Shown here: in pieces, positions 21,489-54,570 of the stretch | Numbering within the stretch: position 1 is the stretch's first letter | Layout of the letters: every line of letters starts with the position of its first letter | DNA from: Candidatus Falkowbacteria bacterium RIFOXYA2_FULL_38_12 | GTDB lineage: Bacteria > Patescibacteriota > Patescibacteriia > XYB2-FULL-38-15 | Reading direction: 5' to 3' | DNA length: 64,000 nt | NCBI GenBank assembly: GCA_001778095.1 | Contig: MFGA01000020.1 | Coordinates: forward strand, 75,805 to 139,804 | Made by a program: the position numbers and the translations under genes | The notes under the pieces: generated by a model | Database searches by the model: none | The model's input: the letters and a program-made list of their open reading frames with translations, nothing else | Told to the model about the DNA's origin: nothing

Positions 21489-21525
21489 AAAAATCCCGCT
21501 CTTTTTGAAGAGCGGGATTTTTGTT
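21489..21525 (+). terminator. rho-independent terminator after rplL
   Basis: AAAAATCCCGCTC-tttttgaa-GAGCGGGATTTTTG. Confidence 0.8.
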
Positions 21526-21537
21526 TGGATAGTGGAG

Positions 21538-21580
21538 TAGCGAACTTTAGTTCGCGTAAGACGCAGACTAAAGTCTGCTA
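21538..21580. repeat. tandem hairpin pair with complementary loops (TTTAG / TAAAG)
   Basis: GCGAAC-tttag-TTCGC and GCAGAC-taaag-TCTGC, downstream of the minus-strand gene ending at 21607. Confidence 0.5.
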
Positions 21581-21606
21581 TTCCAAAATACTCGCGTAAT
21601 TTCCGA

Positions 21607-27612: not shown

Positions 27613-27687
27613 CTGTCATTCCCGCGAAGGCGGGAATCCACTCGCAATTATTTTAAAGTAGATTCCCGCCTTCGCGGGAATGACAAA
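27613..27687. repeat. twin GC hairpins with identical stems and complementary loops
   Basis: GTCATTCCCGC-gaag-GCGGGAATC and its exact reverse complement GATTCCCGC-cttc-GCGGGAATGAC, 21 nt apart. Overlaps the first annotated codons of tgt. Confidence 0.6.
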
Positions 27688-30459: not shown

Positions 30460-33203
30460 ACTGCGCCGCGTGCGCTGGAAGCGGAAAAATCGGAGGAGGG
30501 AAGTGCCTTTCCTGCCATGGTTTGGGTATGGGAATTTATAGAGACAAAAAATTTCTATATTGGAATAAAATAATTACAAATCAGGAGTTGGAAAAGAAAA
30601 AAGCGGAGAAATTCTTAAAATTATTTTTAAATGGGATATCTTTTGTTTTTAGCGTTCTGGCTACTCTACTTTTACTTTGGCAAATAGTGGAAAACAGTTT
30701 TTTTGGCCAGATTTTTACCTTATCTTTTTGGATTTCGGGCAGTCCGGTCGTAACCTTATTTTTGGTTTCTTTATTGGTTGACGCTTATTTAATTTATCGT
30801 TTTTCCGAAGAAATTGCCCAAAAGGCGAAGATTGAGAAAAAAGAATATCAAGACAAGGAGGGAGAGAAAAAAGAGGAGGTAATGGAAACTCTTCCGTCCG
30901 ACTGGGTTTCCGTGCGCGATTTATCAAGCAAAATAAAAATAAATGTTGCCGATACTTTTACTTTTGATGCCCAAAAAGCCGTAGAGGATGCTTTTTTTGT
31001 GGCCACAAAATTTAATCATGGTAAAATTTTGCCATTGCATCTTTTTATAGCTCTTCTTTTTTCCAAAAAGGCGGCAATAGTTTTTGGAAGATTGGGAGTG
31101 AATTTAAAAGAAATGCAGGAAAAACTAGGCCGACAAATATCTTCTGTGGGTGAACTTCTTGCGGAAGGTCAAGAGTCGGTTTTTAGCGAAGAATTAATCC
31201 AATTATTTTTTGATGGATATTTTGAAGCCTACAATTCAAGGCGAGAACAGATTGATATTGCCGAACTTTTGCTCGTTGTTTCCAGATCTAATCCAATCAT
31301 TCAAGAATTGCTTTATGAATATGAAGTTGATCTTGATAAGTTGAAAAACGTAGTGGAGTGGCTTAGGATTTCCGAATTTTTAAGAAAAAGATGGCAAAAA
31401 ACAAGAACGCTGGCGAGATTAAAGCCGGGGGGCACAATGTCGCGGGCAATGACAGCTGTGGCCACGCCATATTTGGATCGTTTCAGTCAGGATTATACAA
31501 TGATGGCAAAATACGGATATTTCGCGCCGTGTCTCGGCAGGGAAAAAGAAATTGAGGAAATTTTTAGAATTATAGAAGGCGGTCGGCAGAGCGTTATTTT
31601 AATCGGTAATCCGGGAATAGGAAAATCGGCAATCCTCGAAGGTATTGCCCAAAGGATGGTGGAAGAAGATGTGCCGAAAATTTTGCAAGACAAAAGATTA
31701 GTAAATTTAAATATCGGACAATTGGTTGCCGGAGCGACGGCTTCTGAAGTTCAAAAAAGATTGTTGATGATTTGCGATGAAATAGCCCGCGCGGGAAATA
31801 TCATTCTTTGCATTCAGGATATTGAAGGAATGATCGGAATTACTTCCGGCGATAAAGAGAGTATTGATTTATCAAGAGTTTTGGCTGATGAATTGTCGCA
31901 AGGTTATTTTTTTGCGATTGCTTCGGCAAGATCCGGAGTGTATGGTCAATACATTGAAAACTCTTCGTTGGGGGCGGTTTTGCAAAAGGTGACAATAGAA
32001 GAGCCGGATACTAATGGAGCGATCCAAATTTTGGAAGGTAAGGCCGGAGCGATTGAATATCAAAACAAAGTGGTTTTTTCTTATGACGCTATTTCCAAGG
32101 CGGTGATTTTGTCCGGTCGTTATTTGCACGACAGATATTTACCGGAAAAAGCCATAGAAATAATGAGAGAAGTAGCACATTATGCGGCAGGGAAACGCGG
32201 AGTGGGGACAATCGTTGTCGGGGAAGATGTGGCTGAAGTAATCGCGCAAAAAACCAAAATACCAGTAACCGCGGTAAATGAAGTTGAATCGGAAAAATTA
32301 TTGCGCCTGGAAGAAGAAATGCATAAGCGAGTGATTGGTCAAGAAGAAGCGATTAAAATGATTGCCGCGGCGCTTCGTCGGGCGAGAGCGGAAATTCGCG
32401 AGGCTAAGCGACCGATTGCCAACTTTTTATTTTTGGGACCGACCGGTGTAGGAAAAACCGAAACGGCAAAAACAGTTTCCGAGGTTTATTTTGGCGATGA
32501 GAGAAATATGATTCGGCTTGATATGTCAGAATATCAAGATCAAGCCAGTATTTATCGCTTGATCGGCGCGCCGGCAGGAAATTCAGCCGGACTTTTGACC
32601 GAGGCGGTGCGTAAAAATCCTTTTACTTTGGTTTTGCTGGATGAAATAGAAAAATCCCATCCGGATATTTTGAATGTTTTTTTGCAAGTTATGGATGACG
32701 GTCGCCTGACCGATAACTTGGGTCGAACGGTTGATTTTACTAATGTTATTTTAATTGCCACTTCCAATGCCGGTTCTCCGGCGATTCAAGACGGAATAAA
32801 GCAAGGATTGACTATTGAAGCGGTCAAAGAGCAACTTATAAATACGGAATTAAAGCCATATTTCAGACCGGAGTTTTTAAATCGTTTTGACGGGATTGTT
32901 GTTTACCGTCCGCTTACCAGTCCGGAAATAGAACAAATTGCCGGCTTGATGCTTGCCAAAATCGGGAAACAGTTGGAGAATAAGCGGGGGATTGTTCTTG
33001 AGGTTACGGGCGAAGCTGTGCGCGAACTAGCCGCGGCTGGTTTTGATCCTGCTTTTGGAGCAAGACCATTACGTCGAGTGATTCAGGAAAAAGTTGAGGA
33101 TGGCTTGACTAATCTTATTTTGACGAAGAAAATTGAAAGAAGAGATAAAGTTATTTTGGAAGTTGGGGGAAATTTTAGAATAGAAAAGGGGAGAGTGTTA
33201 TAA
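30432..33203 (+). CDS. membrane-anchored ClpC/ClpB-like AAA+ ATPase with N-terminal DnaJ-type zinc-finger motifs
   Basis: Two AAA+ modules (Walker A GNPGIGKS and GPTGVGKT, sensor and arginine-finger regions). Clp_N-like repeats. N-terminus carries CAACAGSG and CLSCHGLG (CxxCxGxG) followed by two TM helices. Confidence 0.8.
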   Translation: MLKMPNNFLNCAACAGSGKIGGGKCLSCHGLGMGIYRDKKFLYWNKIITNQELEKKKAEKFLKLFLNGISFVFSVLATLLLLWQIVENSFFGQIFTLSFWISGSPVVTLFLVSLLVDAYLIYRFSEEIAQKAKIEKKEYQDKEGEKKEEVMETLPSDWVSVRDLSSKIKINVADTFTFDAQKAVEDAFFVATKFNHGKILPLHLFIALLFSKKAAIVFGRLGVNLKEMQEKLGRQISSVGELLAEGQESVFSEELIQLFFDGYFEAYNSRREQIDIAELLLVVSRSNPIIQELLYEYEVDLDKLKNVVEWLRISEFLRKRWQKTRTLARLKPGGTMSRAMTAVATPYLDRFSQDYTMMAKYGYFAPCLGREKEIEEIFRIIEGGRQSVILIGNPGIGKSAILEGIAQRMVEEDVPKILQDKRLVNLNIGQLVAGATASEVQKRLLMICDEIARAGNIILCIQDIEGMIGITSGDKESIDLSRVLADELSQGYFFAIASARSGVYGQYIENSSLGAVLQKVTIEEPDTNGAIQILEGKAGAIEYQNKVVFSYDAISKAVILSGRYLHDRYLPEKAIEIMREVAHYAAGKRGVGTIVVGEDVAEVIAQKTKIPVTAVNEVESEKLLRLEEEMHKRVIGQEEAIKMIAAALRRARAEIREAKRPIANFLFLGPTGVGKTETAKTVSEVYFGDERNMIRLDMSEYQDQASIYRLIGAPAGNSAGLLTEAVRKNPFTLVLLDEIEKSHPDILNVFLQVMDDGRLTDNLGRTVDFTNVILIATSNAGSPAIQDGIKQGLTIEAVKEQLINTELKPYFRPEFLNRFDGIVVYRPLTSPEIEQIAGLMLAKIGKQLENKRGIVLEVTGEAVRELAAAGFDPAFGARPLRRVIQEKVEDGLTNLILTKKIERRDKVILEVGGNFRIEKGRVL

Positions 33204-33270
33204 GTTAAAGGTTAAAAGTGAAAAATGAAAAGTTGCAACTTCTCACTTTTAACTTTTCATTTTTCACTTT
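33203..33270. repeat. AAAGTGAAAA/GTTAAAAGT palindromic element
   Basis: gttaaaggttaaaagtgaaaaatgaaaagtt + gcaa + cttctcacttttaacttttcatttttcacttt (near-perfect hairpin). Confidence 0.75.
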
Positions 33271-34840: not shown

Positions 34841-34954
34841 TTAATCCAATATGGGACAAAATAGCGCGGCAAAAGCAAGAACAAAACACGCTCACAAAAA
34901 CACGAAGATTGGCAAGAAATTGGCGGAACATACCAAAAGGCTGAGAAAGAAAGG
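34841..34954 (+). CDS. small highly basic protein (37 aa), unannotated in ORF track
   Basis: MGQNSAAKARTKHAHKNTKIGKKLAEHTKRLRKKGHG. ATG preceded by an AT-rich region. Below the ORF-track length cutoff. Confidence 0.3.
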
Positions 34955-34989
34955 GCACGGCTAAGAGAAAAAATGCAGAGATGATTTTT

Positions 34990-35080
34990 TGTTTCCCCTC
35001 CCTTGATGGGAGGGGCTAGGGGAGGGTGGTCGTATAAATTCACCCCCACCTAACCTCCCCCATCGAGGGGGAGGAAATTT
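34990..35080. repeat. paired GC-rich hairpin element (CCCCTCCC-loop-GGGAGGGG family)
   Basis: CCCCTCCC-ttgat-GGGAGGGG, a middle GGTGG/CCACC stem, then CCTCCCCC-atcga-GGGGGAGG. Confidence 0.65.
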
Positions 35081-35092
35081 GGTGATAATTTT

Positions 35093-35533
35093 ATGGAAAA
35101 ATTTTATTCAATTGTTTTTGGCGTCATTTTAGTGACAGCAGTAGTCATGAAAGTCGGCCAATATTCCAATGAGCATGGCAGGGTTATTGTCGGTGAAGAT
35201 AAGATAAAGGTTGAAATTGTCAGTCAATTGACATCAAGGCAGAAAATGTTGGATTGGCAGGAAGATATGGACAAAGACAATGGGCTTCTCTTTGTTTTGG
35301 ATAAGCCGTCCGAGACTACAGCTTGGTTAAACGAGCTACGATTGCCGGCTGATATCATTTGGCTCCAGAATGGGCAAATAATTGATCTTGCCCCAAATCT
35401 ACCGGCAATTGGTAGTGATTTGCTTGATGGCTACAAAACCCCAAAACCGGCCACTCATATTTTAGAAATCGGTTCCGGTTTTGTGGATAAGTACGACCTA
35501 AAAATCGGGGATAGGCTGGAGATTGAGATATAG
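35093..35533 (+). CDS. DUF192 (COG1430) family protein
   Basis: N-terminal TM helix. GLLFVLDKP...AWLNELRLPADIIWL...ATHILEI...IGDRLEI fits the DUF192 pattern. Confidence 0.5.
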   Translation: MEKFYSIVFGVILVTAVVMKVGQYSNEHGRVIVGEDKIKVEIVSQLTSRQKMLDWQEDMDKDNGLLFVLDKPSETTAWLNELRLPADIIWLQNGQIIDLAPNLPAIGSDLLDGYKTPKPATHILEIGSGFVDKYDLKIGDRLEIEI

Positions 35534-38668: not shown

Positions 38669-38775
38669 GAAGTTAAAAGTGAGAAGTGAAAAATTAAAAG
38701 TTGTTGATGATCTGCCCTTAACTTTAAATTTTGAACTGTAACTTTTCACTTTGCATTTTTAACTTTTAATTTATT
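38669..38775. repeat. AAAGTGAAAA/GTTAAAAGT palindromic element
   Basis: agttaaaagtgagaagtgaaaaattaaaagtt ... acttttcactttgcatttttaacttttaattt. Lies between the tRNA and the lepB ATG. Confidence 0.7.
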
Positions 38776-41974: not shown

Positions 41975-42068
41975 ATTTTAAAGTTAAAAGTGCAAAGTAA
42001 AAAATTAAAAGTTACAATTCAAAGTTAAAAGTTGTTAGCAGTTAATTTTAAACTTTTCACCTTTAGGC
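41975..42068. repeat. AAAGTGAAAA/GTTAAAAGT element
   Basis: aaagttaaaagtgcaaagtaaaaaattaaaagttacaattcaaagttaaaagtt ... aaacttttcaccttt, ending 2 nt before the ATG. Confidence 0.65.
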
Positions 42069-42069
42069 G

Positions 42070-43980
42070 ATGTTTAAAAAAAAGACAGCCTTAAAGTTTT
42101 TATTAGCCCTAGTTTTACTTGTGGGAGGTTTTTTGTTTGTCCAAAATGTTTTCGCTCAAGATATTGCCGGCATGGACATTGTGAACGAAAATATCGCTTT
42201 GTCCGCCGATGACCCAAGAATTATCGCCGCAAGGATTATTAGAATAGCTTTGGGATTTTTAGGAATAATAGCCGTCTGCATAGTCTTGTATGGAGGTTTT
42301 TTATGGATGACTTCAGCCGGCAATGAAGAAACTATTGGTAAGGCAAAAAAAGTTTTGATCAATGGATTGATCGGTTTGATCATAATTTTAATGGCTTTTG
42401 GCATTACCCAATTTGTTTTAAATTCTCTGCTTGGCAGGGTCGGGGGAGGAGCCGGCGGGGGAGGCGGGTCACCATTAATCGGGCGATATAGCGGAGCCTT
42501 GGGTAATGGAATTATTGAGAGTCATTATCCGCCACGCGGAGGGACGGGAATTCCACGTAATACAAAAATTATCGTGACATTCAAGGAAAAAATGTTACTT
42601 GAGTCTTTGGTTAACAATTATAATGATAACGGAACGCCGGACAATATTGCGGATGATGTGGTTACTAAAAATGACAATGGCACGCCCGGCAATCCAGCAG
42701 ATGATTGGATGGAAATCAATAGCGAGAATGTTAGAATCTTTAAATCAAGCGAAGGAGAACTTGGCACGGAGCGAGTCCCGAACTATTTATCATCAAGCCA
42801 GGTAAGGGTTTCCTTTACGGCTGATCTGAAAAATTTTGTTTTTGATCCGATTCCACTGCTTGGTAGTCCGACGGAAAATATTTGGTATACAACAGCCTTA
42901 AAGCCGGGCATAGAAAAATCAAACGGCGACAATGCTTTTGCCGGAGCTTTCCGTGACGGATATGCTTGGGATTTTGAAGTGAGCACGATTATTGACGTAA
43001 CTCCGCCACAAGTAGTCAGCGTTATTCCAAGAAAAGATTCTGTAAATCCGCGCAATATAAAAGTGCAAATAAATTTTAATGAAGCAATGGATCCGACAAC
43101 TGTTTCCGGAAGTACTTTTGGCGAGGAGGCTTTAAGATTTAATAATGTTTTAACCACTGATGCTCTTGATCGCGAGGTTGCCGGAACGTGGAGTATTGGT
43201 AATCAATATAAAACAATAGAATTTGTAACTAATGACAAGTGTGGGACAAATTCTTGTGGAGGCGATGTTTATTGTCTTCCGGGAGATGAAACAATCAGCG
43301 TTCTGGCCATTGCCGCAAGATTAGGGAGTAGTCCGCCGGAGGCCGAGATGCCTTATGACGGTATTGTTGATGTTTGCGGTAATTCTTTGGATGGAAATAG
43401 CAACGGCCGAGCCGAAGGACAGTCTCTGGAAGGGAGAAGCGCTATTGGTGGAGATAATTATTCATGGCTTTTTAAAACAAACGACACTATTGATTTAGTT
43501 CCGCCAACAATCAGCGCGGTTACTCCAATGCCGGAAACTGAAAGCGTGGCTTTCGCCGTTCCGGTAGAATTAACCTTTTCAAAATTAATGAGTATTACGA
43601 GTTTTACAACCAGCAATATTTCCTTTCAGGATAATCAACGCGATGAATGCGCGGTTTGGTTTTTTCTGGATGGCGACAATTTACAAGCGGACGGAGCTCC
43701 GGTTAGGGGATCTGATGATATCGCCATACGCACAAAAGCGAGAGTCAGTCATGAAAACTTATTGCCGACAGGTGGAGTTTGTTCTGACGATAGACCGGTA
43801 GAAGGACCGTTAGCAATGGATGGCGAGGGTTCATTGGTTTATTATTTTCCAGTTGCCAATTCGGATGTTCAAGATTTGTTTCAAAATTGTTTTTATAGAC
43901 CCATCGGACCGGCCGATGGTCAGACTTGCGTTGTTGGAAGAGATGGAAATTTGCCAGCTGACTGCGAGCCATGGAGATAA
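42070..43980 (+). CDS. secreted surface protein with VirB2/TrbC-pilin-like N-terminal anchor and Big_5-type Ig-like domains
   Basis: Signal peptide, then two hydrophobic helices separated by a short charged loop, then a poly-Gly linker. Repeated D.TPP.V....P........I...F.E.MDP.TV Ig-like modules. Confidence 0.6.
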   Translation: MFKKKTALKFLLALVLLVGGFLFVQNVFAQDIAGMDIVNENIALSADDPRIIAARIIRIALGFLGIIAVCIVLYGGFLWMTSAGNEETIGKAKKVLINGLIGLIIILMAFGITQFVLNSLLGRVGGGAGGGGGSPLIGRYSGALGNGIIESHYPPRGGTGIPRNTKIIVTFKEKMLLESLVNNYNDNGTPDNIADDVVTKNDNGTPGNPADDWMEINSENVRIFKSSEGELGTERVPNYLSSSQVRVSFTADLKNFVFDPIPLLGSPTENIWYTTALKPGIEKSNGDNAFAGAFRDGYAWDFEVSTIIDVTPPQVVSVIPRKDSVNPRNIKVQINFNEAMDPTTVSGSTFGEEALRFNNVLTTDALDREVAGTWSIGNQYKTIEFVTNDKCGTNSCGGDVYCLPGDETISVLAIAARLGSSPPEAEMPYDGIVDVCGNSLDGNSNGRAEGQSLEGRSAIGGDNYSWLFKTNDTIDLVPPTISAVTPMPETESVAFAVPVELTFSKLMSITSFTTSNISFQDNQRDECAVWFFLDGDNLQADGAPVRGSDDIAIRTKARVSHENLLPTGGVCSDDRPVEGPLAMDGEGSLVYYFPVANSDVQDLFQNCFYRPIGPADGQTCVVGRDGNLPADCEPWR

Positions 43981-44075
43981 AGTGAAAGGTTAAAAGTGAA
44001 AGATGAAAAATTAACGAGTTTTCAACTTTCAACTTTTAACTGTAACTTTACACTTTTCATTTTTCACTTTTAATT
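43981..44075. repeat. AAAGTGAAAA/GTTAAAAGT palindromic element
   Basis: agtgaaaggttaaaagtgaaagatgaaaaatt ... aacttttaactgtaactttacacttttcatttttcacttttaattt. Confidence 0.7.
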
Positions 44076-44079: not shown

Positions 44080-47000
44080 TTGATGCTAAGCAAAAAGACA
44101 GCTCTAAAATTTACACTATCCCTCATCGTACTTATGGGAAGTCTTTTGTTTGTCCAAACGGTTTTTGCGCAAGATTTTGGGACTGATGTTGTCGGCGAAA
44201 ATATTGCTCTAGTGGATGCCGGTGATCCCAGAGTTGTCGCCGCAAGGATTATCAGAATAGCTTTGGGATTTTTGGGAATTATTGCTGTTTGCATAGTTTT
44301 GTATGGAGGCTTTTTATGGATGACTTCAGCCGGCAACGAAGAGACTCTTGGTAAGGCAAAAAAGGTTTTAACCAGCGGTTTGATCGGACTTATCATTATT
44401 TTAATGGCTTTTGGTATTACTCAATTTGTTTTGAGTAGATTGACAGAGGCAACAGGGGTTGATGGCGGAGGGGGTGGCGGAGGCGGCGGAGGGGGTGGCG
44501 GAGGCTTGCCTTCTGACGCTTTTTTAGTAAGAAGCATTCAGCCAAATGGCGCTATTCCCATTCGTAATGTCATTGTCAGAGTTCTTTTTAATAAAAACGT
44601 AAATGCAGATAGTCTAAGAGTGGCGGGAAATTTTGTAGTGCGTCGGGTTTCCGACAACACGCCAGTAGAAGGAATAATAAATCTAAATGGTAATCTTGCG
44701 GAATTTGTTCCCAATGCCGATTGTCCCGAACCAAATGCTGATAGAAAATGTTTTGATAGTGATACTGAATTTAGAGTGGAATTAGCTACTGGGATAAGAA
44801 GCGAGACTGGAAAGAGTTTGATGTGTGGAGGATTGGCTCCGTCTTGTCGTGGAACTTTCACAACTGGAAATTTGGTTGATGTTACCGGCCCCGAGGTTGA
44901 TGTTACTTTTCCTGATGATGGTCAGCCGGTGAGTGCCGACGCGATTATAAGTATTGAAGCGCATGCGATTGACGATGCGGGAATTTCTTATTTGGATTAT
45001 TTTGTTAATAACAACCTTTTGGGTCGGGACGCTCCGGAGGGGCCGACTGTTCGAGATTATTTTTCGGCTACCGATTGGGATACAACCGGAATAGCCTCGG
45101 GGACAAAATATAAATTAAAGGCCACAGCTTTTGATATTGATTCAAACAATACAAACTCAAACGGCGTAGGGGTGATTGTTAGAGCTGCGCATTGTTTTAA
45201 TGCGTTTAAAGATCTTGATGAGATCCAAGTTGATTGTGGCGGAGTTGATTGCGGTTTATGTGACGGCGGAGCTTGTGTTAATGATGATGAGTGTCGTAGT
45301 GGAATTTGTTTAAACGGAATTTGTCGGAGCTTGCCGGTTATCGCTAGGGTTGCTCCCAGCGATGGCGCAGTAGGAAATTTTATAACAATATTTGGCGAGC
45401 ATTTTGGCAATGTTCACGGTTCGGTTTATTTTCAGGATCACATCGAAGGCAATTTGCCGAGAGGTTGTGTAGTTGGAGACGTTTGGCAGGATAGACAAAT
45501 TATCGTTGAGGTCCCGGCAGGAGCATTGGACGGGCCGATTTCCGTTGTTATTCCTCCACCGGACGGAGCGCTAGCTTCAGACTATACGGACAGGACGAAT
45601 GATGAACGAGGTCCGTTGTTGCCTGATTTTGACGTGAATGAAATTGAACGTCCGGGAATTTGCGCAATTAATCCGAAAGAAGGAGAACCAAAAGCTGAAG
45701 TGAGGGTTTTGGGAACTCATTTTGGTGACCAGCAGGGAGACAGTTTGATTAATTTTGGAGGGACAAGAGCCGAAAGAATTTTGGATTGGGGAGAATCAAG
45801 TATTAGGGCAACAGTTCCCTTGATAGCCCCGGCGGTTGTTCCCGTTCAAGTAGTAAAAGATGAAGAAAATAGCAATCCTATTAATTTTACCGTTCTTCAA
45901 TCTGCCGCGACTCCAAAAATTTTAAGTTTCTCTCCGACAAAAGGGCCGGAAGGGGAATATATAACCATTTTAGGTTCAAGTTTCGGCGACACTCCCGGTA
46001 AAGTTGATTTTGTTGCGCCGGACGGAACAATTTATTTGGCGGCAACTGATTTTCCGGAGGTCTGCGGAGCTAATTGGTGGAAAGATGACGCAGTGATTAT
46101 TAAAATACCGAAAGAAGCAAGGATTATTCTTCCCGGGCCAAAATATACTTTAAAATTAACGGCAAATAGCGGCCTTGTTGATGATACTTCGGATTTAACA
46201 CCGGCAACTCTCGAAATTATTGGCGGGGCGCCAAAACCGGGAATTTGTCGTATTTTTCCGGACAACGGACCGGCTGGTCTTGAGGTTGCAATTGATGGGG
46301 AAAGATTGGGGTTGAGAGGAATTTTAAATTTTTGGAGAAATAAGGTTGCTCTAACAAATTCGTGGAAAGTGGATCAGGTTGTTGGAGTCGTGCCAGTCGG
46401 ATCAGAAACCGGGCCAATCAATGTTTCGGTCGGCGATAATTTAAGCAATAATGTAAATTTTAACGTTCGCGATTGTCGCGACGCGAGAACGCCATGCGGA
46501 GAAGGAGAAGAATGTTGTCGGGATGGATCATGTCGAGCGGATGGAGAATGCGCGGAAGCGCCGGGTAGCGGACATTATTTTTGGCGTTTTTCCACCGGTG
46601 AGCTACCAATAAATCCCAGAGTGGTGGAATATTGCGGTCCGGCTGATGAACCAAGAAGATTAAACCCGTCACCTTCACCTTGGAATAAAAGAGAAGGTGG
46701 AAACAATGTTTGCATTAATGCCAGGATCACGGCCAGATTTAATGTAAAAATGAACAATGAATCATTGACAACACATGGGAATATTGTTGTGGAAGAATGT
46801 GCCGGTCCTGACGCGGAAAATCCTTGTCTTGAAAAAAGAGTAGTTGAGGGAGAAATTAATCCTTTAGTTGTAAATGATGCTCTTTTACCAAGAGGAATTG
46901 GATCAGATTCATTTGAGTTTGTTTTGCCAGCGGGCATTCTATTTGAACAAAATAAAGTTTATCAAGTTACTTTAAAAGGTGGTTCATTTGAAGATCCCGG

Positions 47001-50000
47001 ACTTGCAAGTGTTGCCGGGTTGCTTTTAGACGGAGATAAAGACGGAGAAGAGGGTGGAGATTATATTTTTGAATTTAAAACAAGGAATACTGATGAGTTG
47101 TGCGAAATAGGTTCAATCGGAATCATGCCTCCAATCGCAACACTGACTGAACAATGGATAGAAGATGAAGAAATTGTCGGATCAGAATTGGAGTATACCG
47201 GTTTGTGCTATGCAGAGGGGGATATATGTTTAACTCTAAATTGTAGAAACTATGATTGGAGATGGAAATCATCTGACGATCCGTTAAATCCAAAGGTTTC
47301 ATTGCTGGAAGTGGAAGATGATGAAGGCGAAGTGATTGAAGAGAAGGCACTTGTCAGGGCAGTAGCGGAGACAGATATAAACCCCGCGACTGGTCTAAGT
47401 CAACCAGTAATAATAACTGGCGCGATCCCAGTTGAAAGAAAGTCTGGAGAGGGAGATTTAACTATTAGTTTTACAGATCCAAAAGTAATTGAAAAATGGC
47501 CTGATTGTCGAGAGGCCTGCAAGAATTCGGAAGTAGGCGTTAAATTTAATACATGGATGGATGAAGAAATTGCCGGCGATCCTCAAAATATAAAGTTATA
47601 TATCTGGCGTTGCGGTAATAGTGTTATTGATCATGGCGAAGATTGTGATGACGGAAATATTGTTTCCGGCGATGGTTGCAGTAGTAGTTGTCTAAATGAG
47701 GGAACAAAACTTTGTCTCGAATTTGATCCGGCCGTCAGAGAAGTATCGGTCGAGGATTCTTGTTGCGGAAATGGACGGCGCGATCCGGGCGAAGATTGCG
47801 ATGGTAATCCTTTTCCGGCGAATTGCCGAGTAGATGGATTGGCTGACAATTGTCTTAATGAAGGAACGGCTGTGATCGGCGACGGTGGAAGTTGTGGTAA
47901 TAGTATAGTTGAAGAAGGTGAAGATTGCGATCCGCCGGATCTTGCTTTGCCACCGGGAAGTCGTGGGTGTAGCGTGGAATGTTTGAATCAAGGGACTTCC
48001 GGACTATTTCCGGCGCCCGGAGGTATTGTCGGAGTTTTACCTCGATATTCTTCAGTAAGCCTAAGCGAAGGGAAATGGGAACACAAACTGAATTTTGATT
48101 TTCCTGTCGGTTTTTCTCTTCTTCCTAATACTTGGTATAGGGCGGTAGTTTCGGGAGCTCAAAAAAGCGTTAGCGGAGTTGCTCTCACGGAATTGAATTA
48201 TGACGATATACCTGACGAAAGACATTCTTTAGATTCATATTCTTGGGCGTTTAGAACCAAAAGCGATGATTCTTTATGCGCTGTTGATAAAATTGAAGTG
48301 AGCCCGAGGGAAGCGCGGGTTAGATTTATTGGAGCAAAAGTTGATTTTAGGTCAATGCCTTTTGGCGCGCCGGATGAATGTAGCCCTAATGGCCAGAAAT
48401 TGAGAGCGATGAGCTATCCTTGGGTTTGGAATTCAACAGTAGAGGAAGTGGGAACTCTTCCGGCTCCTCGTTCCGATAGATTCCCCGGTTGTGGCAATGG
48501 TGTTGTGGAATTTGGTGAAGATTGCGACGATGGAAATATACTTCCGGGTGATGGTTGCGCCGGGCCGGGAGATAACGCCTGCTTAAATGAGGGTGAGAGC
48601 GCGTGCGCCTTTGGAGAAGGTATGTGTATAGTAGATAAACGTTGTATTTGGAATGAAGCTGATGGAGGAAGATGTATTAAAAAAACTATCTGCGGAAATA
48701 GAGCAGTAGAGATAGGCGAAGATTGCGATGATGGAGATAGAGATTCGGGAGACGGATGCAATAATAAATGTTTGAATGAGGGGTCAGTCGCCGGAGGATC
48801 TGTCTGTGGAGATATGAAGATTGGTATTGGTGAAGACTGCGATGACGGAAATACTCGATCGGGAGATGGATGCAGTAATCTTTGTTTGAATGAAGGGACT
48901 ATTCTTGACAGAAGAATTGATCCTCTGCAAACAGTAACGGCAAAGGGGCTAAGAGTTGATCATGCTCGCGAGGACACTACGGCAATAAGCGCTGAAACAG
49001 ATGGAAAAAAAGGTGAGGGCAATTTTACTTTAGCTTGCAGTTATAATCTACCGGACAATCCTTGCCCGGAAGACGACGAAAGGGGTGATATTTATGGAAT
49101 TGGTAATAATTCTTGCTGTTATCCAAAGCCAATTATTGAAACCTGTAATCCGTCAGGCGCGGCTATTTGTTCCAATAAACCGGAAGGGGAAGCGGTTTGT
49201 CGCAATTCTTTAATCTCAATAACTTTTGATAAAGAAATGGATCCGGCCTCACTGGAAGAAAATATTATTGTCGCTGGCAATTATAATGTTTGCCCGGAAG
49301 GAACGATTGACGTTGGTAATGGCGATATCAGACTTCGTGAATTTATAAATTGGTGCGCGGTAACGGGAGGAATTACCGTTAGTCAAATTGTTCCGGAAGA
49401 AGGCGAAAAAAAGACAAGAGTTGATTTTAATTTATCCAAACTTTTGGATCCGAGCATAAAATATAAAGTTATTGTTCGCGGGAATAATTTATTGACTCGA
49501 GATAGAGTAGAGGGAGCAAGGAGTATTAACGGAGTGGAGCTGGGAGAGACTAATTTTACTTTTAGAGAAGGGGAGGCGAGTTATCAAAGCAGGAGCTGGA
49601 CTTTTTGGACAAACGATCAAATTTGCGCCCTGTCTTCAGTTAAAATAAATCCCGAAAGTCATCTTTTTACCAGCAGTTTGGATCCGGAAAATCGGGCTGA
49701 TTTTATAGCAACCGCCTTGGATGCAAGAAATAATCCTATTTCGTCAATTCCCGGATCTTATTCTTGGAGATGGGATTGGACTTCAAGTTATATTGACATA
49801 GCCGCTCTTTCTCTTTGCGCTGATCCAAACGGATGTAGCACAAGAACCGTGACGGCGCAAAATCAAAACGGAGAATCATTAATTTCCGCCAAAGCGACGA
49901 TAACAGCAGATGAAGAAGTCCCGGGCGCAAGAGGTCAAAGCAAGTTTGGCATTTCCAATGTCGCTGTTTTTCTTTGCGAAAATCCTTGGCCAACAGCGGC

Positions 50001-53000
50001 AACAATAAGAGAGGACGGAGGATATCTTGATCGTAATTATAATTTCAAATTTTACTATTGCCGAGACAAAGGGGAATTTTTGCCTGACGATGATCTACCC
50101 TGTTTTCCCTCGGCGGAAGTGGGCGGAGCGATTGCCGTAAGGGATACCGAGAGAATCGGCGTATTAAGAGAAGATGGTTTGTTGAGAGAATATTTATTTA
50201 CGTTTCCGGGAACATTTTATTGTAGTGTTTCACAAACTTTATGCGATCCTGCCGCCCTTCCTGACGCTCTGGGTTTCTGTCCTGCCGGAACCGGAGATTG
50301 CCGACCGGCCCCGGATGCCATTGGTATTAGAATTTACGAAAACGTTAATCATCTAACTCCGACCGAATGGTATGGAAAGCAAGGATTAGCTGTGGGAAGT
50401 CCGGAGACAATTAATATTGACGGCTATGAAGCAATACGAGATGGTCGGACAGTCTATATTTCGGCGGCCAATGACACGATGGGTCCGGACACTCTTTATA
50501 CAAATATTTATTTGGTCTCTTATAACGACGGAGCTAATTCGGATACAATAAATATCTATAATCAGATAATACAAAATTTAAAATTTAATACTAATTTGAG
50601 AAATGCGGATCTGCGGGCATGTCTTTACAGGGCTTGCAGTAATAATGCCAGCAAAAGTTGCAATATGGATGCAGACTGTCGCGCGGAGCCTGACGTTACT
50701 TCAACTTGTTTGCCTTTATCTTATTGCACTAAAGATATGGATTGTCCGCCGGCGGTTCCGGTTGCGGGAACAATTAACGAATGTCAAGCGCCAAAAGATA
50801 AATTAACCAGAGACATGAGGAGGATTATTGACCTTAATAATCTAAAAAGAGTAATAGATTCTTATAAAACTGTTCATGGAAGCTATCCAAAACTGGAAGC
50901 GGGAACTTATATCAGATCATTGGTCTCCAGCGTTTGGGGTTCTTGGATCGGGGCGTTGGGCAAAGACTTAGGCGCATCATTACCCGTTGATCCGATCAAC
51001 AAAATTGTTAATTGCGAGGGGGCGGGTTTTGATAAGGAAACATGTTGGAATCTAGAATCAAAAACGTATCAATGTCCGGCCGGTTCGCATGTTTATCAAT
51101 ATAAAGTGAACGGAGACGGGACATATAAATTAAAGAGTGATTTTGAGTATAGGGCAAACGATCGCCTCGTTGATCTAAAAACGCTATGGGTAGGAAATTT
51201 ATCTAATGTGTTTGAAATACAAGGATCTTGCGATGGCGCTCCCATAAGAAGCACCGGCGTTTGCGGAGATGGAAATATAGACGGTCCCGAGGAATGCGAG
51301 CCGAGAGCTAATCCCCCGCGAGACAGGGCGTGTACACTTGAGATTGATGGAGAAGAAGTGGCTGGCAGACAAAGAGAAGAGTGTAACCCAGCTGACTGCA
51401 CTTGGCGCGAGCTAGGTGGCTGTTCGGTTCTCTGTGGGGATGGCATTCGCCAAGTGGGTGAAGAATGTGACGAAGGGCCTCTGGGCGGACGAATAGCTGG
51501 TGGAGGAATGTCTCCGGAAAATCAGTATTTTTGTACTAGAGAATGTGAAATGATGGGAGGTTATTGTGGTGATGGAGGAGAACCACAGGTAGCTTATGGA
51601 GAAAGATGCGATAATGGAGTTTCTTGCACGTTAAGGTTGCCTTGTGCAAGTGTGGATGGATGTGTCTGTGGATCTTGTATAGTTCCTAGGGGAAAGAAAA
51701 GCTGTGGAAATGGATCTTACGGATTGAGCGTTAGTGGAGAACCTTGGTGCAAAACAGATTGTTCGGGCTTCGGTCCATATTGCGGAGATGAGGTTGTAAA
51801 TGGAGCTGAACAATGTGATGGAGATTCTATTACTTCAAAAGGAATTTGTGTTCCAGAAGGAATACCAGAACTAAACGATGTGGATACGGTTCTTGGAAGT
51901 TATACCTCATGTAACAACAATGAAGATTGTTCGGACGGTACTTGTGTTATTTGTGATAATTCTAGAGAAGGTTATTCTCAATCAAGAACGAAAAACTGTG
52001 GAGAGTTGGGGGTACCAGGGTTAGCTCTTCTATGTGACTGGAATAGATGGGGCGCTTGCGAGACGGCAGGTACTTGCGGAAATGGGACAAAAGAAGGGGA
52101 CGAGGAATGTGATGATGGAAATGAAAATAATAATGATGGTTGTATTATCACCTTGGAAAATTCTCCATCGGGTCCTGATAATTGCAAACTAGCTCGTTGT
52201 GGAGATGGATTTACTAAGATTGGTGCAGAAGCCTGTGACGTCGGCGTAGGCAATGGCAGGATTTGCAGGGCAAACTATGGTGAAAATTGTAATTATTGCG
52301 ATGTTAATTGCGCTATAAAAGTTATTACCGGACCTCGTTGCGGAGATGGAATAATAAATGGAAGAGAGACATGCGATGATCGAGCGGGAACTAGTTTGTT
52401 ATATAAAATAATTGAGGAACAAAAATATTTTGCTGATAATCGTGGCGATAGTTTAGGAGTAGTTGTTCCCGTGAGTATGGATTCGGCCTGCTCAATAGAC
52501 AGCGCTCTTCCGGGCATAGATGGTTCCTGCCCGGGGCAACCGCCAACAGGAGCACTGAAATTTAATCGGGCGGTTTGTTCAGCGGATTGCGCTTCAACTT
52601 GTCCCCCGGCTTATAAAATACAAACATTAACCTTTGGTCCGGAAGGACGAAGTTCAATTGAATTAGGAAGTAACGAGGAGGTCTCAGTTAATCTTCCCGC
52701 TTGTCGTGTTTTGGGTGACATTAAAGTTGATGTTGATTTGAGTAATGTTACTCAAACTCCGTTGAATGTGGTTTTTGTGACGGATAGATCGGGGAGTATG
52801 GGGTGGGGAACAACATCAAGTTCTGGACCAAATCTTTCTTGCAGTGAAGACAGAACGAGGATGGGTTGTGCTAGAGATGCGCTTACGGAAGCAATAAATT
52901 TATTATTTGATAGTTATGAAAATATTCGCATTGGCTTGGTAAGTTATGGTAATAATGTCCCGGTTGGTGCATGGCATGACTTGCTGGGTTTTTTAGGGAA

Positions 53001-53658
53001 AGACATATTAATTTCCGCAGTTGGTTCCTATACTCCGACTTTAGGTGCTACTAACATTTCCGCTGGGGTAAAGAAGGCAAAAGATATATTAAACAATGAA
53101 GATGGTAAAAAAATAATTGTTTTAATGAGTGATGGAGAAGCGACGAGACCTCATGAAACCCCAGCGCTAAGAGCAGTTTATCCTGCTTGTGATAGATATA
53201 GTAGAGACGATTTTGCCGCATGCGTTGCAGGAGAAGAGGTTAGATTGGCTAAAGGTAGAGATATAGAAATTTACACAATTTTATTTTATGGTCCCACATC
53301 CGCAGAAGCTAATATGGAGAGTTGGGCAAGTTCTCCCACGGAGCCTTACGCTAACATAAGCGCTCCCGATAATGACTTGGATGAAATTTATCGTTCTATT
53401 ATAGCCTCTCTAACATCCTCAAGTATAAATTTAAATTTACAAGAAACCGGAGGTGTGCGAGGGGGTGCAGAGATACCTCTTTTAAGAAGTATCTTTTGTA
53501 AGGAAGAAGAACAAACAGATATTCCCTTTAGTATAGATTTTGGCGGGATAGGCAAGGCGCGTGTAAGTAATCTAAAAGCTTATATATGCCCTGGCCCGCC
53601 GTATCCACCCGAAGATCTTTGGGAATGTGTCGGAGACTCTTGCGATGTGAGTCTATAG
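44080..53658 (+). CDS. giant (3192 aa) cell-surface protein: pilin-like N-terminal anchor, poly-Gly linker, IPT/TIG and Ig-like domains, ~12 cysteine-rich (GEDCDDGN...GDGC) repeats, embedded pseudopilin-like segment, C-terminal vWA domain
   Basis: N-terminal 125 aa ~85-90% identical to the 42070 protein. Four IPT-like modules (ITIFGEHFG, VRVLGTHFG, ITILGSSFG, VAIDGERLG). Repeats CGN..GEDCDDGN...GDGC..C of the Myxococcus-type cysteine-rich repeat. vWA MIDAS VVFVTDRSGSM and IIVLMSDGEAT. Confidence 0.7.
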   Translation: MMLSKKTALKFTLSLIVLMGSLLFVQTVFAQDFGTDVVGENIALVDAGDPRVVAARIIRIALGFLGIIAVCIVLYGGFLWMTSAGNEETLGKAKKVLTSGLIGLIIILMAFGITQFVLSRLTEATGVDGGGGGGGGGGGGGGLPSDAFLVRSIQPNGAIPIRNVIVRVLFNKNVNADSLRVAGNFVVRRVSDNTPVEGIINLNGNLAEFVPNADCPEPNADRKCFDSDTEFRVELATGIRSETGKSLMCGGLAPSCRGTFTTGNLVDVTGPEVDVTFPDDGQPVSADAIISIEAHAIDDAGISYLDYFVNNNLLGRDAPEGPTVRDYFSATDWDTTGIASGTKYKLKATAFDIDSNNTNSNGVGVIVRAAHCFNAFKDLDEIQVDCGGVDCGLCDGGACVNDDECRSGICLNGICRSLPVIARVAPSDGAVGNFITIFGEHFGNVHGSVYFQDHIEGNLPRGCVVGDVWQDRQIIVEVPAGALDGPISVVIPPPDGALASDYTDRTNDERGPLLPDFDVNEIERPGICAINPKEGEPKAEVRVLGTHFGDQQGDSLINFGGTRAERILDWGESSIRATVPLIAPAVVPVQVVKDEENSNPINFTVLQSAATPKILSFSPTKGPEGEYITILGSSFGDTPGKVDFVAPDGTIYLAATDFPEVCGANWWKDDAVIIKIPKEARIILPGPKYTLKLTANSGLVDDTSDLTPATLEIIGGAPKPGICRIFPDNGPAGLEVAIDGERLGLRGILNFWRNKVALTNSWKVDQVVGVVPVGSETGPINVSVGDNLSNNVNFNVRDCRDARTPCGEGEECCRDGSCRADGECAEAPGSGHYFWRFSTGELPINPRVVEYCGPADEPRRLNPSPSPWNKREGGNNVCINARITARFNVKMNNESLTTHGNIVVEECAGPDAENPCLEKRVVEGEINPLVVNDALLPRGIGSDSFEFVLPAGILFEQNKVYQVTLKGGSFEDPGLASVAGLLLDGDKDGEEGGDYIFEFKTRNTDELCEIGSIGIMPPIATLTEQWIEDEEIVGSELEYTGLCYAEGDICLTLNCRNYDWRWKSSDDPLNPKVSLLEVEDDEGEVIEEKALVRAVAETDINPATGLSQPVIITGAIPVERKSGEGDLTISFTDPKVIEKWPDCREACKNSEVGVKFNTWMDEEIAGDPQNIKLYIWRCGNSVIDHGEDCDDGNIVSGDGCSSSCLNEGTKLCLEFDPAVREVSVEDSCCGNGRRDPGEDCDGNPFPANCRVDGLADNCLNEGTAVIGDGGSCGNSIVEEGEDCDPPDLALPPGSRGCSVECLNQGTSGLFPAPGGIVGVLPRYSSVSLSEGKWEHKLNFDFPVGFSLLPNTWYRAVVSGAQKSVSGVALTELNYDDIPDERHSLDSYSWAFRTKSDDSLCAVDKIEVSPREARVRFIGAKVDFRSMPFGAPDECSPNGQKLRAMSYPWVWNSTVEEVGTLPAPRSDRFPGCGNGVVEFGEDCDDGNILPGDGCAGPGDNACLNEGESACAFGEGMCIVDKRCIWNEADGGRCIKKTICGNRAVEIGEDCDDGDRDSGDGCNNKCLNEGSVAGGSVCGDMKIGIGEDCDDGNTRSGDGCSNLCLNEGTILDRRIDPLQTVTAKGLRVDHAREDTTAISAETDGKKGEGNFTLACSYNLPDNPCPEDDERGDIYGIGNNSCCYPKPIIETCNPSGAAICSNKPEGEAVCRNSLISITFDKEMDPASLEENIIVAGNYNVCPEGTIDVGNGDIRLREFINWCAVTGGITVSQIVPEEGEKKTRVDFNLSKLLDPSIKYKVIVRGNNLLTRDRVEGARSINGVELGETNFTFREGEASYQSRSWTFWTNDQICALSSVKINPESHLFTSSLDPENRADFIATALDARNNPISSIPGSYSWRWDWTSSYIDIAALSLCADPNGCSTRTVTAQNQNGESLISAKATITADEEVPGARGQSKFGISNVAVFLCENPWPTAATIREDGGYLDRNYNFKFYYCRDKGEFLPDDDLPCFPSAEVGGAIAVRDTERIGVLREDGLLREYLFTFPGTFYCSVSQTLCDPAALPDALGFCPAGTGDCRPAPDAIGIRIYENVNHLTPTEWYGKQGLAVGSPETINIDGYEAIRDGRTVYISAANDTMGPDTLYTNIYLVSYNDGANSDTINIYNQIIQNLKFNTNLRNADLRACLYRACSNNASKSCNMDADCRAEPDVTSTCLPLSYCTKDMDCPPAVPVAGTINECQAPKDKLTRDMRRIIDLNNLKRVIDSYKTVHGSYPKLEAGTYIRSLVSSVWGSWIGALGKDLGASLPVDPINKIVNCEGAGFDKETCWNLESKTYQCPAGSHVYQYKVNGDGTYKLKSDFEYRANDRLVDLKTLWVGNLSNVFEIQGSCDGAPIRSTGVCGDGNIDGPEECEPRANPPRDRACTLEIDGEEVAGRQREECNPADCTWRELGGCSVLCGDGIRQVGEECDEGPLGGRIAGGGMSPENQYFCTRECEMMGGYCGDGGEPQVAYGERCDNGVSCTLRLPCASVDGCVCGSCIVPRGKKSCGNGSYGLSVSGEPWCKTDCSGFGPYCGDEVVNGAEQCDGDSITSKGICVPEGIPELNDVDTVLGSYTSCNNNEDCSDGTCVICDNSREGYSQSRTKNCGELGVPGLALLCDWNRWGACETAGTCGNGTKEGDEECDDGNENNNDGCIITLENSPSGPDNCKLARCGDGFTKIGAEACDVGVGNGRICRANYGENCNYCDVNCAIKVITGPRCGDGIINGRETCDDRAGTSLLYKIIEEQKYFADNRGDSLGVVVPVSMDSACSIDSALPGIDGSCPGQPPTGALKFNRAVCSADCASTCPPAYKIQTLTFGPEGRSSIELGSNEEVSVNLPACRVLGDIKVDVDLSNVTQTPLNVVFVTDRSGSMGWGTTSSSGPNLSCSEDRTRMGCARDALTEAINLLFDSYENIRIGLVSYGNNVPVGAWHDLLGFLGKDILISAVGSYTPTLGATNISAGVKKAKDILNNEDGKKIIVLMSDGEATRPHETPALRAVYPACDRYSRDDFAACVAGEEVRLAKGRDIEIYTILFYGPTSAEANMESWASSPTEPYANISAPDNDLDEIYRSIIASLTSSSINLNLQETGGVRGGAEIPLLRSIFCKEEEQTDIPFSIDFGGIGKARVSNLKAYICPGPPYPPEDLWECVGDSCDVSL
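44464..44505 (+). repeat. perfect 21-bp tandem duplication encoding a poly-Gly linker
   Basis: ggcggagggggtggcggaggc x2, inside the giant gene (15-residue Gly run). Confidence 0.8.
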
Positions 53659-53685
53659 GAGAATATACATATAGAGACTAAAATT

Positions 53686-54495
53686 ATGCAAAAAAATACA
53701 AAAATTATTATCGCATTCTTGGTTGGAGCTTTGATTTTATTTGGAGTCGCTTTTGGTTTTTGGTATTCAAAACAAAAAAATAACACTGAAAATTTGCCAG
53801 AAAATCAAGAAAAAATAGTGGAAGAAGTCCCGGAAAATAAAACATTTGAATTGGCAAGAATAGAAAAAGAAAAAAGTAAATGCGCGGAAAATGGAGAAGA
53901 GGGATGTGGAGACAATGTTTTAATTATGGAAGCAATAAATGATTTAAAAGTGGAAGCATGCAACGAAGTCGTGGATGAAAAAGCGAGAAATAATTGCATT
54001 ACGGAAATTGCCATTCGCCAAAATGATGAAAAAAGTTGCGATCTCCACAAAGACGAGGCGGAAAAAAATACTTGTTTGAGTTTGATCTTGGGAAATAAAG
54101 CCAGAGAGAGCGATGATATGGCAGTTTGTCTTGCGGTTCCCGGCGAAAGTTATAGAGATTCTTGCTTTTTTAGCATTGTGAATAAAAAAAATGACGCAAA
54201 ATATTGCGACGAGCTGGGAGAGCTAAGAGATAAATGCTTGAATATAATTTTGACCAATAAGGCTTTTGAAGAGGGCGACACAAGTTTTTGCGATAATATT
54301 ACAGACGCCGATTCGCGAGAAAGTTGTTCGGCGGAATTGGGCGGGACGGATTCTGATAATGATGGTCTAAGTAATTCCGACGAAGAAAAATACGGAACTG
54401 ATCCCAAAGATCCGGATAGTGACGGGGATAGTTATCTTGATGGGGCGGAAGTGGAAGCGGGGTATAATCCGAAGGGAGCGGGGAAATTGGAGTAA
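53686..54495 (+). CDS. TM-anchored Cys-rich secreted protein with C-terminal thrombospondin-type-3-like Ca-binding repeats
   Basis: N-terminal TM helix. Regularly spaced Cys pairs. C-terminal DSDNDGLSNSDEE...DPDSDGDSYLDGAEVEAGYNPKGAGKLE. Confidence 0.5.
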   Translation: MQKNTKIIIAFLVGALILFGVAFGFWYSKQKNNTENLPENQEKIVEEVPENKTFELARIEKEKSKCAENGEEGCGDNVLIMEAINDLKVEACNEVVDEKARNNCITEIAIRQNDEKSCDLHKDEAEKNTCLSLILGNKARESDDMAVCLAVPGESYRDSCFFSIVNKKNDAKYCDELGELRDKCLNIILTNKAFEEGDTSFCDNITDADSRESCSAELGGTDSDNDGLSNSDEEKYGTDPKDPDSDGDSYLDGAEVEAGYNPKGAGKLE

Positions 54496-54570
54496 ACTAA
54501 GAGGAAAAAGGCAACTTTAAACTTTTAATTGTAACTTTTCACTTCTCATTTTTAACCTTTAACTTAATAC
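54496..54570. repeat. AAAGTGAAAA/GTTAAAAGT element (reverse-arm words only)
   Basis: ggcaactttaaacttttaattgtaacttttcacttctcatttttaacctttaactt, ending 8 nt before the ATG. Confidence 0.6.

Follow-up and report, generated by a model that had tools for sequence, protein, structure and literature searches.

Two palindromic BoxC/PIT/triplex-motif repeats in a Candidatus Falkowbacteria genome share their ends with DUF559 gene cassettes

We analysed a 64,000-nt stretch of the genome of Candidatus Falkowbacteria bacterium RIFOXYA2_FULL_38_12 (the window), in which an earlier note had singled out two G/C-rich twin-hairpin loci. The sequence of the window is AT-rich (GC content 35-44%), its GC skew is positive throughout and its genes lie largely on the + strand; it carries an L10 leader and one tRNA-Val beside bacterial housekeeping genes. 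The two loci are copies, in opposite orientation, of one palindromic element of about 80 nt (locus 1, 34995-35074; locus 2, 55312-55390). Both copies are intergenic, lie between + strand genes and start 30-41 nt past a stop codon, and their ends, of two types called LEFT and RIGHT here, are the same as those that flank DUF559 genes in other bacteria. The features at the two loci are as follows.

34851-34964, + strand: small open reading frame (ORF) of 37 aa, Lys/Arg-rich, MGQNSAAKARTKHAHKNTKIGKKLAEHTKRLRKKGHG, upstream of locus 1, its stop 30 nt before the element
34995-35028, + strand: unit A (RIGHT-type end), consisting of CCCCTCCC (34995-35002), TTGAT, GGGAGGGG (35008-35015), CTA, the third strand GGGGAGGG (35019-35026) and TG
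35029-35040, no strand assigned: 12-nt spacer of locus 1, GTCGTATAAATT
35041-35074, - strand: unit B (LEFT-type end), consisting of CCTCCCCC, TCGAT, GGGGGAGG, TTA, GGTGGGGG and TG
35093-35533, + strand: DUF192 gene downstream of locus 1, its ATG 18 nt after the element
54572-55270, + strand: gene for a TSP3-repeat protein upstream of locus 2, its stop 41 nt before the element
55312-55345, + strand: unit C (LEFT-type end), consisting of CCTCCCCT, TTGAC, AGGGGAGG, CGA, GGAGGGGA and TG
55346-55356, no strand assigned: 11-nt spacer of locus 2, ATTATTCAAGT
55357-55390, - strand: unit D (RIGHT-type end), consisting of CCCCTCCC, TTGAC, GGGAGGGG, TTA, GGGGAGGG and TG
55434-56486, + strand: gene for a 350-aa hypothetical protein downstream of locus 2

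The 350-aa protein is identical to A2316_03100 of Candidatus Falkowbacteria bacterium RIFOXYB2_FULL_38_15, a candidate phyla radiation (CPR)/Patescibacteria genome from the Rifle aquifer. The window DNA recurs in many Rifle-derived assemblies and the sequence is present in at least six independent ones (L001-L005, L008), so it is not an assembly artefact.

Each locus is made of two inverted 34-nt units placed tail-to-tail around the spacer. Read 5' to 3', a unit begins with a pyrimidine stem (8 nt), which a loop of 5 nt separates from a purine stem (8 nt); a linker of 3 nt, a second purine segment (8 nt) and TG follow. Searching the 64 kb for CCYCYCCY-N5-RGGRGRGG returned exactly four hairpins (34995-35015, 35054-35074, 55312-55332 and 55370-55390) where shuffled sequence gave an expectation of 0.02 and 0 of 100 shuffles reached four, in agreement with the earlier claim that the two loci share one architecture. 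The hexamer CCYCCC was not enriched in the window (35 observed vs 48 expected), and 10 of the 35 occurrences were inside the two 80-nt loci. Each locus does carry two hairpins with 8-bp G/C stems as had been described, but not with the same stem in both: one is CCCCTCCC/GGGAGGGG and the other CCTCCCC(C/T)/(G/A)GGGGAGG. The order of the two types is reversed between the loci and therefore locus 1 on the + strand corresponds to locus 2 on the - strand; the loci align only if one of them is reverse-complemented.

Folding with RNA parameters gave a minimum free energy (MFE) structure with one long imperfect hairpin of about 40 bp (-52 to -58 kcal/mol, z -4.5 to -6.1), whereas DNA parameters gave a three-hairpin form (-25 to -26 kcal/mol; -9.2 kcal/mol for the unit A hairpin alone). 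The two folds are close alternatives and the choice depends on the parameters, so the three-hairpin fold proposed earlier is recovered for DNA and not for RNA. Its short middle stem is present but is the pairing of the two mirror third strands, one contributed by each unit. The loops are complementary, only at 4 of 5 positions for TTGAT/ATCGA, because the element is an inverted duplication. As an inverted doublet of imperfect palindromes able to form a long hairpin, the element has the form of a REPIN, the doublet form of the repetitive extragenic palindromic (REP) sequences. Searching the 4227 Rfam models at gathering and permissive E-value thresholds returned no family, only sub-threshold generic miRNA-precursor hairpins, and no tRNA or tmRNA was found at the two loci. 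TTGACA in the locus 2 loop gave a promoter-like match in a scan, which we attribute to chance.

The defining feature of the unit, overlooked in the earlier note, is its mirror-repeat third strand. In each of the four units the purine stem and the final purine segment are exact mirrors of each other (GGGAGGGG/GGGGAGGG in A and D, GGGGGAGG/GGTGGGGG in B and AGGGGAGG/GGAGGGGA in C) and 8/8 triplets fit the antiparallel purine motif (G.G-C, A.A-T, T.A-T). The mirror of unit B is maintained through a T.A-T triplet and that of unit C is perfect at 8/8 with its terminal A included. The E. coli BoxC/TMECO pair between hrpB and mrcB aligns with the window elements column by column, including the TTGA loop, the TTA linker and the TG tail, and the same unit design has been described for TMECO (PMC4666352). 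Because of the triplet rule, the E. coli alignment and this shared design, the window elements can be assigned securely to the BoxC/PIT/intrastrand-triplex-motif (TM) class of palindromic repeats. Strict TMECO, CCCTCNCCC-N3-6-GGGNGAGGG-N3-GGGNGAGGG, had 0 matches in the window, where the units are single-A variants with 8-nt stems. The E. coli BoxC repeats are also known as PIT elements (Hoyne et al. 2000, 2002).

To follow the family beyond this genome we searched species-representative genome and viral collections for CCCCTCCC-N3-8-GGGAGGGG-N2-5-GGGGAGGG and metagenomes for the exact 34-nt unit. At least 120 loci were found in each of the genome, viral and metagenome collections, counts that are lower bounds and not unbiased frequencies, and the IMG/VR contigs may include host flanks. 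The exact 34-nt sequence of unit D was present in at least 120 metagenome contigs. The repeat is thus not confined to the two sites, as the earlier note had allowed that it might be, since the family occurs far beyond this genome. Hosts among the matches listed were Alpha- and Deltaproteobacteria, Nitrospirota, Planctomycetota, Chloroflexota, Bacteroidales, Zixibacteria, Omnitrophica and Aminicenantes, with Sphingomonas, Rhizobium, Inquilinus and Prevotella among the cultured ones, and the GC content of matched loci ranged from 0.37 to 0.77. About 36% of units had an inverted partner, and the stretch between the third strand's end and the partner hairpin typically measured 37-57 nt. Many twins on Lake Tanganyika contigs (Ga0194113/Ga0194125; L272, L289, L297, L314, L315, L327, L334, L348 and others) share a left flank of about 25 nt, tcaa(c/g)ttaag...caatt, and are therefore embedded in a larger multi-copy composite repeat.

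The third strand covaries with the stem across the fetched loci. Among pyrimidine/purine hairpins with asymmetric stems the mirror was the better fit in 316, a direct copy was in 23 and the two tied in 102, and among units outside the search pattern 60 of 196 had a perfect mirror vs 14.5 +/- 3.2 when tails were permuted among units (maximum 27 in 1000), counts that ignore kinship and are inflated by shared descent. Variant stems carry their own matching third strand (GGGGGAGGG > GGGTGGGGG, AGGGAAGGGGG > GGGGGTTAGGT, GGGGGAGA > AGAGGGGG), and this variety of co-varying stem types argues for constraint on the mirror symmetry, exerted through a triplex or through a protein that reads the mirror.

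Many metagenome units that appeared solo adjoin a conserved stretch that is the reverse complement of the 3' end of a gene. A hidden Markov model built from those ORFs matched 24 ORFs (about 22 genes) in 2.9 Mb of fetched DNA, 21 of which fall in the 120 metagenome loci listed for the 34-nt unit, and Pfam assigned the cassette ORFs to PF04480 (DUF559) with E values of 1e-41 to 1e-43. The cassette has the order LEFT unit, ORF of 110-125 aa, inverted RIGHT unit. The LEFT unit is CCCTCCCCC-TTGAT-GGGGGAGGG-TTA-GGGTGGGGG-TGA, the same type as window unit B, or is TMECO-type, and the RIGHT unit is CA-CCCTCCCC-TAA-CCCCTCCC-ATCAA-GGGAGGGG. TMECO-type units also partner CCCCTCCC-type units elsewhere (L067, L121, L271, L311 and L329 show one or other of these arrangements), so the two variants are linked. 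The RIGHT unit starts 7-23 nt past the DUF559 domain, or the gene runs into it, and it is often translated as HPPLTPPIKGG. The bait of this search was the RIGHT unit only, neither the gene nor the LEFT unit being part of the query, and an inverted LEFT unit lay 15-65 nt upstream in at least 16 of the 24 DUF559-like ORF matches. Distances between inverted units were bimodal, 0-60 nt for twins vs about 334-377 nt for cassettes; on this scale (third strand to third-strand complement) the window copies measure 15-16 nt. The DUF559 genes flanked by units are about 340 nt long. A protein search with one DUF559 subfamily query, restricted to the core domain, gave 3385 homologues at E < 1e-20, and unit-encoded C-terminal tails such as HPPLTPPIKGG were present in 74 of the best 120. 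One tail-less homologue (P0089) has units on both DNA sides, and at another (P0164) the upstream LEFT unit alone is intact and the downstream side is degenerate.

Units also occur at DUF559 genes of isolates. Five genera have G/C triplex-type units beside such genes: units are head-to-head around the gene in Deinococcus psychrotolerans and on a Synechocystis plasmid, Sphingomonas parapaucimobilis has a tail-to-tail cassette with additional outer units, Azospirillum brasilense has a LEFT unit only, and in Neisseria gonorrhoeae the units are decayed and directly oriented. In Sinorhizobium K101 none was evident. The E. coli K-12 DUF559 gene ycjD terminates (...RRSPSP*) within an inverted unit that has decayed, and an intact TMECO (#9) follows 168 nt downstream. 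Before TMECO #9 there is a partial duplicate of the last 60 or so nt of ycjD together with a decayed unit (L391:2240-2430), which reads as the footprint of a past rearrangement at this locus.

The window elements look like such cassettes without the gene. Their LEFT and RIGHT unit types are ordered as in the cassettes, on the - strand at locus 1 and the + strand at locus 2, and they align end-to-end with joined cassette termini (330-352 nt removed) at 68-73 of 91 positions. The two window copies match each other at 71 of 89 positions and are thus as similar to each other as to the joined ends. Taken with the TG/CA dinucleotides, the window spacers resemble a cassette's left junction (TGAAT / TGATT) and, after it, its gene's last codons (TTTACGCCA / TTTAAATCA); the stretch is short and the likeness no more than suggestive. 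In the open papers found to mention DUF559 or ycjD, and in the three papers on the motif, gene and repeat are not connected (non-open work, including Hoyne 2000 and 2002, was outside this scope).

Comparison with relatives demonstrated that the elements come and go. At locus 1 both neighbours, the 37-aa ORF upstream and the DUF192 gene downstream, are kept, and the G/C twin is found in the window strain only. A 97% relative (L258-L263) has instead an unrelated, perfect palindrome with a 22-bp stem, GTTGGACGCCCGGCTTCCAAcaattattTTGGAAGCCGGGCGTCCAAC, in the place of window positions 34981-35083, a 76% relative (L252) has a third, AT-rich palindrome, and a 68% relative has no palindrome and a 15-nt spacer. 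Hairpins have thus turned over at this one intergenic site, three lineages having three unrelated strong palindromes. The locus 2 twin is kept in relatives with 88% and 78% protein identity, and in the latter it is decaying, with a 1-nt deletion in a third-strand complement and a stem-breaking G>T. It is absent from a 65% relative, in which the genes abut and the neighbourhood differs. Because presence, replacement and erosion vary in this way, the elements are dispensable, of differing ages and able to decay. The 37-aa ORF was kept in the 97%, 76% and 68% relatives and had no Pfam match; it probably encodes a real small protein that most gene callers overlook.

Taken together these comparisons make it probable, in our view, that the twins are TM-class repeat copies without a gene, dispensable derivatives or partners of a selfish DUF559 cassette that has spread horizontally across bacterial phyla. 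The cassette would have two ends and two forms, the twin being the short one and the long one enclosing the ~340-nt gene for a Vsr-like PD-(D/E)XK protein, and the relation between the two forms would resemble that of REPIN to RAYT (REP-associated tyrosine transposase) or of miniature inverted-repeat transposable element (MITE) to insertion sequence. The twin may have arisen by internal deletion of the cassette, or be an empty target into which the gene homes. A single-stranded unit would fold back twice, forming a C-rich/G-rich hairpin and then laying the G-rich third strand antiparallel onto it as a class II purine-motif triplex in competition with a G-quadruplex (G4), and the whole element could adopt a cruciform or three-hairpin form in DNA and the ~40-bp hairpin in RNA. 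The nuclease would recognise, and presumably act on, these structured ends. The copies in Falkowbacteria would be non-autonomous, MITE- or REPIN-like passengers subject to gain, replacement and erosion among close relatives, and any effects on the flanking genes, as a hairpin in the transcript or an obstacle to replication, would be incidental.

Several observations weigh against this interpretation. The 64-kb window holds only two copies (several other genomes have 2-3 loci each among the matches listed), and there is no DUF559 gene in the window nor in about 150 kb of related Falkowbacteria contigs. Scans with a broader pattern found 3 DUF559 genes vs about 445 units, most of them not adjacent to a gene, which fits non-autonomous spread and equally fits independence from DUF559. 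The arrangement of units around DUF559 differs among isolates (tail-to-tail, head-to-head, direct), and most other twin spacers hold no recognisable remnant of a DUF559 3' end. In the locus 1 alignment the sequence has been replaced, a few additional nucleotides at either side included, and not simply inserted, and neither the alignment nor the relatives revealed a target-site duplication or a clean empty site. DUF559 is a predicted PD-(D/E)XK nuclease without demonstrated biochemical activity. TMECO formed a triplex in vitro as single-stranded DNA and none was detected in vivo (PMC4666352).

A wider proposal, which we offer tentatively and consider somewhat doubtful as a whole, is that BoxC/PIT/TM repeats in general belong to a pan-bacterial selfish element, as its ends and as offspring without the gene, and that a short stand-alone DUF559 nuclease of the YcjD type would be the one gene it has. 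These repeats have been catalogued since the 1990s with structural explanations (triplex, G4, 'instability'), and we know of no proposal so far for their origin. If true, this would be a second partnership of the REP/RAYT kind, in which a PD-(D/E)XK nuclease recognises folded hairpin-plus-third-strand DNA. It would explain the near-identity of units across phyla, with identical 34-nt units in hosts of 37% to 65% GC, their presence in a reduced CPR genome of about 1 Mb and the function of DUF559. As DUF559 is a very large domain-of-unknown-function family, the linkage gives family and repeats alike a testable nuclease-repeat hypothesis. At a practical level such palindromes break short-read (de Bruijn) assemblies and create spurious Pro/Gly-rich ORF tails. 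In several samples short-read contigs end inside the G/C twin or the replacement palindromes of relatives (L006-L010, L253, L259, L266).

The main rival is a hairpin selected by the host, the lineage having co-opted the element at intergenic sites to serve as an insulator or a terminator that needs no U-tract, or to stabilise or process 3' ends, with the twin as one interchangeable hairpin 'cassette'. The position of both copies 30-41 nt past a stop between + strand genes, the three unrelated palindromes at the locus 1 site, the long palindromes in many intergenic regions of this genome and the RNA MFE of -52 to -58 kcal/mol are all in its favour, but we consider it unlikely. A T/U tract is missing (the copies have AAATTTGG and AACACTGC as tails) and terminator scans flag neither site, the two copies are oppositely oriented relative to transcription, hairpins are absent at these sites from the 68% and 65% relatives and the copy of one relative is eroding. 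The same sequence also sits in unrelated contexts across phyla, and the E. coli homologues lack promoter or terminator activity (PMC4666352). The terminator role suggested in the earlier note is disfavoured by the same points.

A DNA switch between hairpin, triplex and G4, maintained by the host to tune replication, recombination and genome plasticity, is the reading of Holder et al. (2015), Kaplan et al. (2016) and Chashchina et al. (2021). It accounts for the three-way covariation of stems and third strand, and it can draw on the in vitro triplex and G4 formation of related, homologous sequences (PMC4666352, PMC8044849) and on the association of E. coli TMECO with local genomic variability (PMC4666352). 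Units A and D, with the pattern G3AG4-YTA-G4AG3 and its four runs of at least three G, qualify as canonical G4 motifs. Units B (G5AG2/G2TG5; runs G5, G2, G2, G5) and C (G4AG2/G2AG4; runs G4, G2, G2, G4), however, lack four G3 runs and are poor formers of three-tetrad G4. A reading by G4 alone is weakened and fails to explain the mirror, because this is half of the window units. Nearest-neighbour folding of the units returned hairpins only. According to Holder et al. (2015, PMC4666352) RNA does not form purine-motif triplexes, and therefore any triplex role would be at the DNA level. No triplex was detected in vivo in E. coli (PMC4666352), the patchy presence among close relatives speaks against a maintained host function, and the flanking of a nuclease gene by units is left unexplained, so we regard such a switch as improbable.

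Mobilisation by a RAYT of the HUH Y1 transposase family has little to recommend it beyond the form of the element, an inverted doublet of short palindromic units, and the presence in close relatives of a Y1_Tnp (PF01797, RAYT-like) gene two genes upstream of the locus 2 site. That gene (L264:147-749 and L267:537-1139; degraded in one relative) lies between the genes for a giant protein and for TSP3-repeat proteins, at the equivalent of window positions 53658-53686. It is flanked by an unrelated hairpin, GAGGACAGTCCTTattcAAGGACTGTCCTC (GAGGACAGTCCTT...AAGGACTGTCCTC), that is absent from the window, and the window has no Y1_Tnp. None was noticed beside units in a screen that was systematic for DUF559 only, and REPs are lineage-specific whereas these units cross phyla, making this explanation very improbable. 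Of the roles suggested in the earlier note a REP-like repeat nevertheless came nearest, in that this is an interspersed extragenic palindromic family, of the BoxC/PIT/TM class and not a REP/RAYT element. The neighbouring region at 44080-53658 (+) holds a giant ORF of 3192 aa followed by three TSP3-repeat proteins; the orthologue in a relative has Big_5/VWA/TSP_3 domains, and this is probably a cell-surface locus. A riboregulator controlling the downstream gene by kissing loops or a sequestered Shine-Dalgarno (SD)-like GGGAGG, both raised in the earlier note from the complementary loops and the pairing of GGAGG with CCTCC strands, can practically be dismissed, since the loop complementarity follows from the inverted duplication, GGAGG ends 18 nt (locus 1) and 43 nt (locus 2) before the ATG, the neighbours have no SD, relatives without the element keep the same start regions with no SD, and there is no Rfam family.

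Other palindromes were seen in the window. At 27614-27685 lies a different twin-hairpin palindrome with arms TGTCATTCCCGCGAAGGCGGGAATCCACT / AGTAGATTCCCGCCTTCGCGGGAATGACA that are 97% complementary, each arm containing a hairpin of its own. Palindromes are nested here in the same way, in a repeat family that is separate. Long AT-rich intergenic inverted repeats of AAAGTGAAAAGTTAAAAG-like words occur at 4476-4555, 8644-8698, 33197-33270, 38670-38772, 41985-42065, 43979-44073 and 54510-54570, and in a fetched locus (L267:1960-2130). They look like a lineage-specific intergenic signal or repeat and are possibly real terminators or promoters. A small twin hairpin (GCGAACTTTAGTTCGC / GCAGACTAAAGTCTGC) lies beside a classical terminator-like site with hairpin and T-tract (21533-21585 and 21496-21521), and an intergenic inverted repeat at 10281-10417, before the gene at 10426, has 64-nt arms of AAATCCTAAATCC-like words that are 75% complementary.

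Among known systems the E. coli repeats are closest in sequence. TMECO, earlier called BoxC and PIT element, has 23 copies in E. coli K-12, all intergenic, five of which form inverted heterotypic pairs (PMC4666352), and Kaplan et al. (2016) describe the same motif, under the name HPGQ, as a switch (PMC5100583). Like the window units, BoxC/PIT/TMECO/HPGQ have a C-rich stem, a loop of 3-6 nt, a G-rich stem, a 3-nt linker and then another stem rich in G, and BoxC/TMECO copies are likewise intergenic and occur singly or as heterotypic inverted pairs of about 85 bp. TMECO stems are 9 nt (CCCTCNCCC/GGGNGAGGG), whereas the window stems have 8 nt, of which one is A/T, and TMECO is reported from Proteobacteria only, whereas the host here is a CPR bacterium with 39% GC. 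Chashchina et al. (2021) described repetitive elements of Methanomicrobiaceae with putative quadruplex sequences (PQS) and C-tracts, in equilibrium between hairpin, triplex and G4 (PMC8044849). These are also G/C-rich and intergenic with mirrored G-runs and an A/T at the mirrored position, but their segment order is reversed (third strand, purine stem, loop, pyrimidine stem) and their hosts are archaea.

For the gene, the Vsr-like homing endonuclease I-Bth0305I has been placed in a VSR/DUF559/DUF2726 clade (PMC3424549). It illustrates that a Vsr-like nuclease fold can serve a selfish mobile gene, although I-Bth0305I sits in a group I intron. To our knowledge it has no relation to G/C repeats. 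MITEs compare well in that the short form has both termini of a gene-bearing long form in the same order and orientation and sizes are bimodal, and differ in that here there is no transposase-family gene, target-site duplication or demonstrated transposition. In REPIN/RAYT systems many gene-less copies accompany a single nuclease/transposase gene flanked by inverted units. The RAYT is an HUH Y1 transposase and not a PD-(D/E)XK DUF559 nuclease, and REPs are species-specific, whereas the window-type units add a third, mirror strand and have a sequence that crosses phyla. With short palindromic units, inverted doublets and a long hairpin in common, REP/REPIN with RAYT (PMC3116915) is the closest working analogy.

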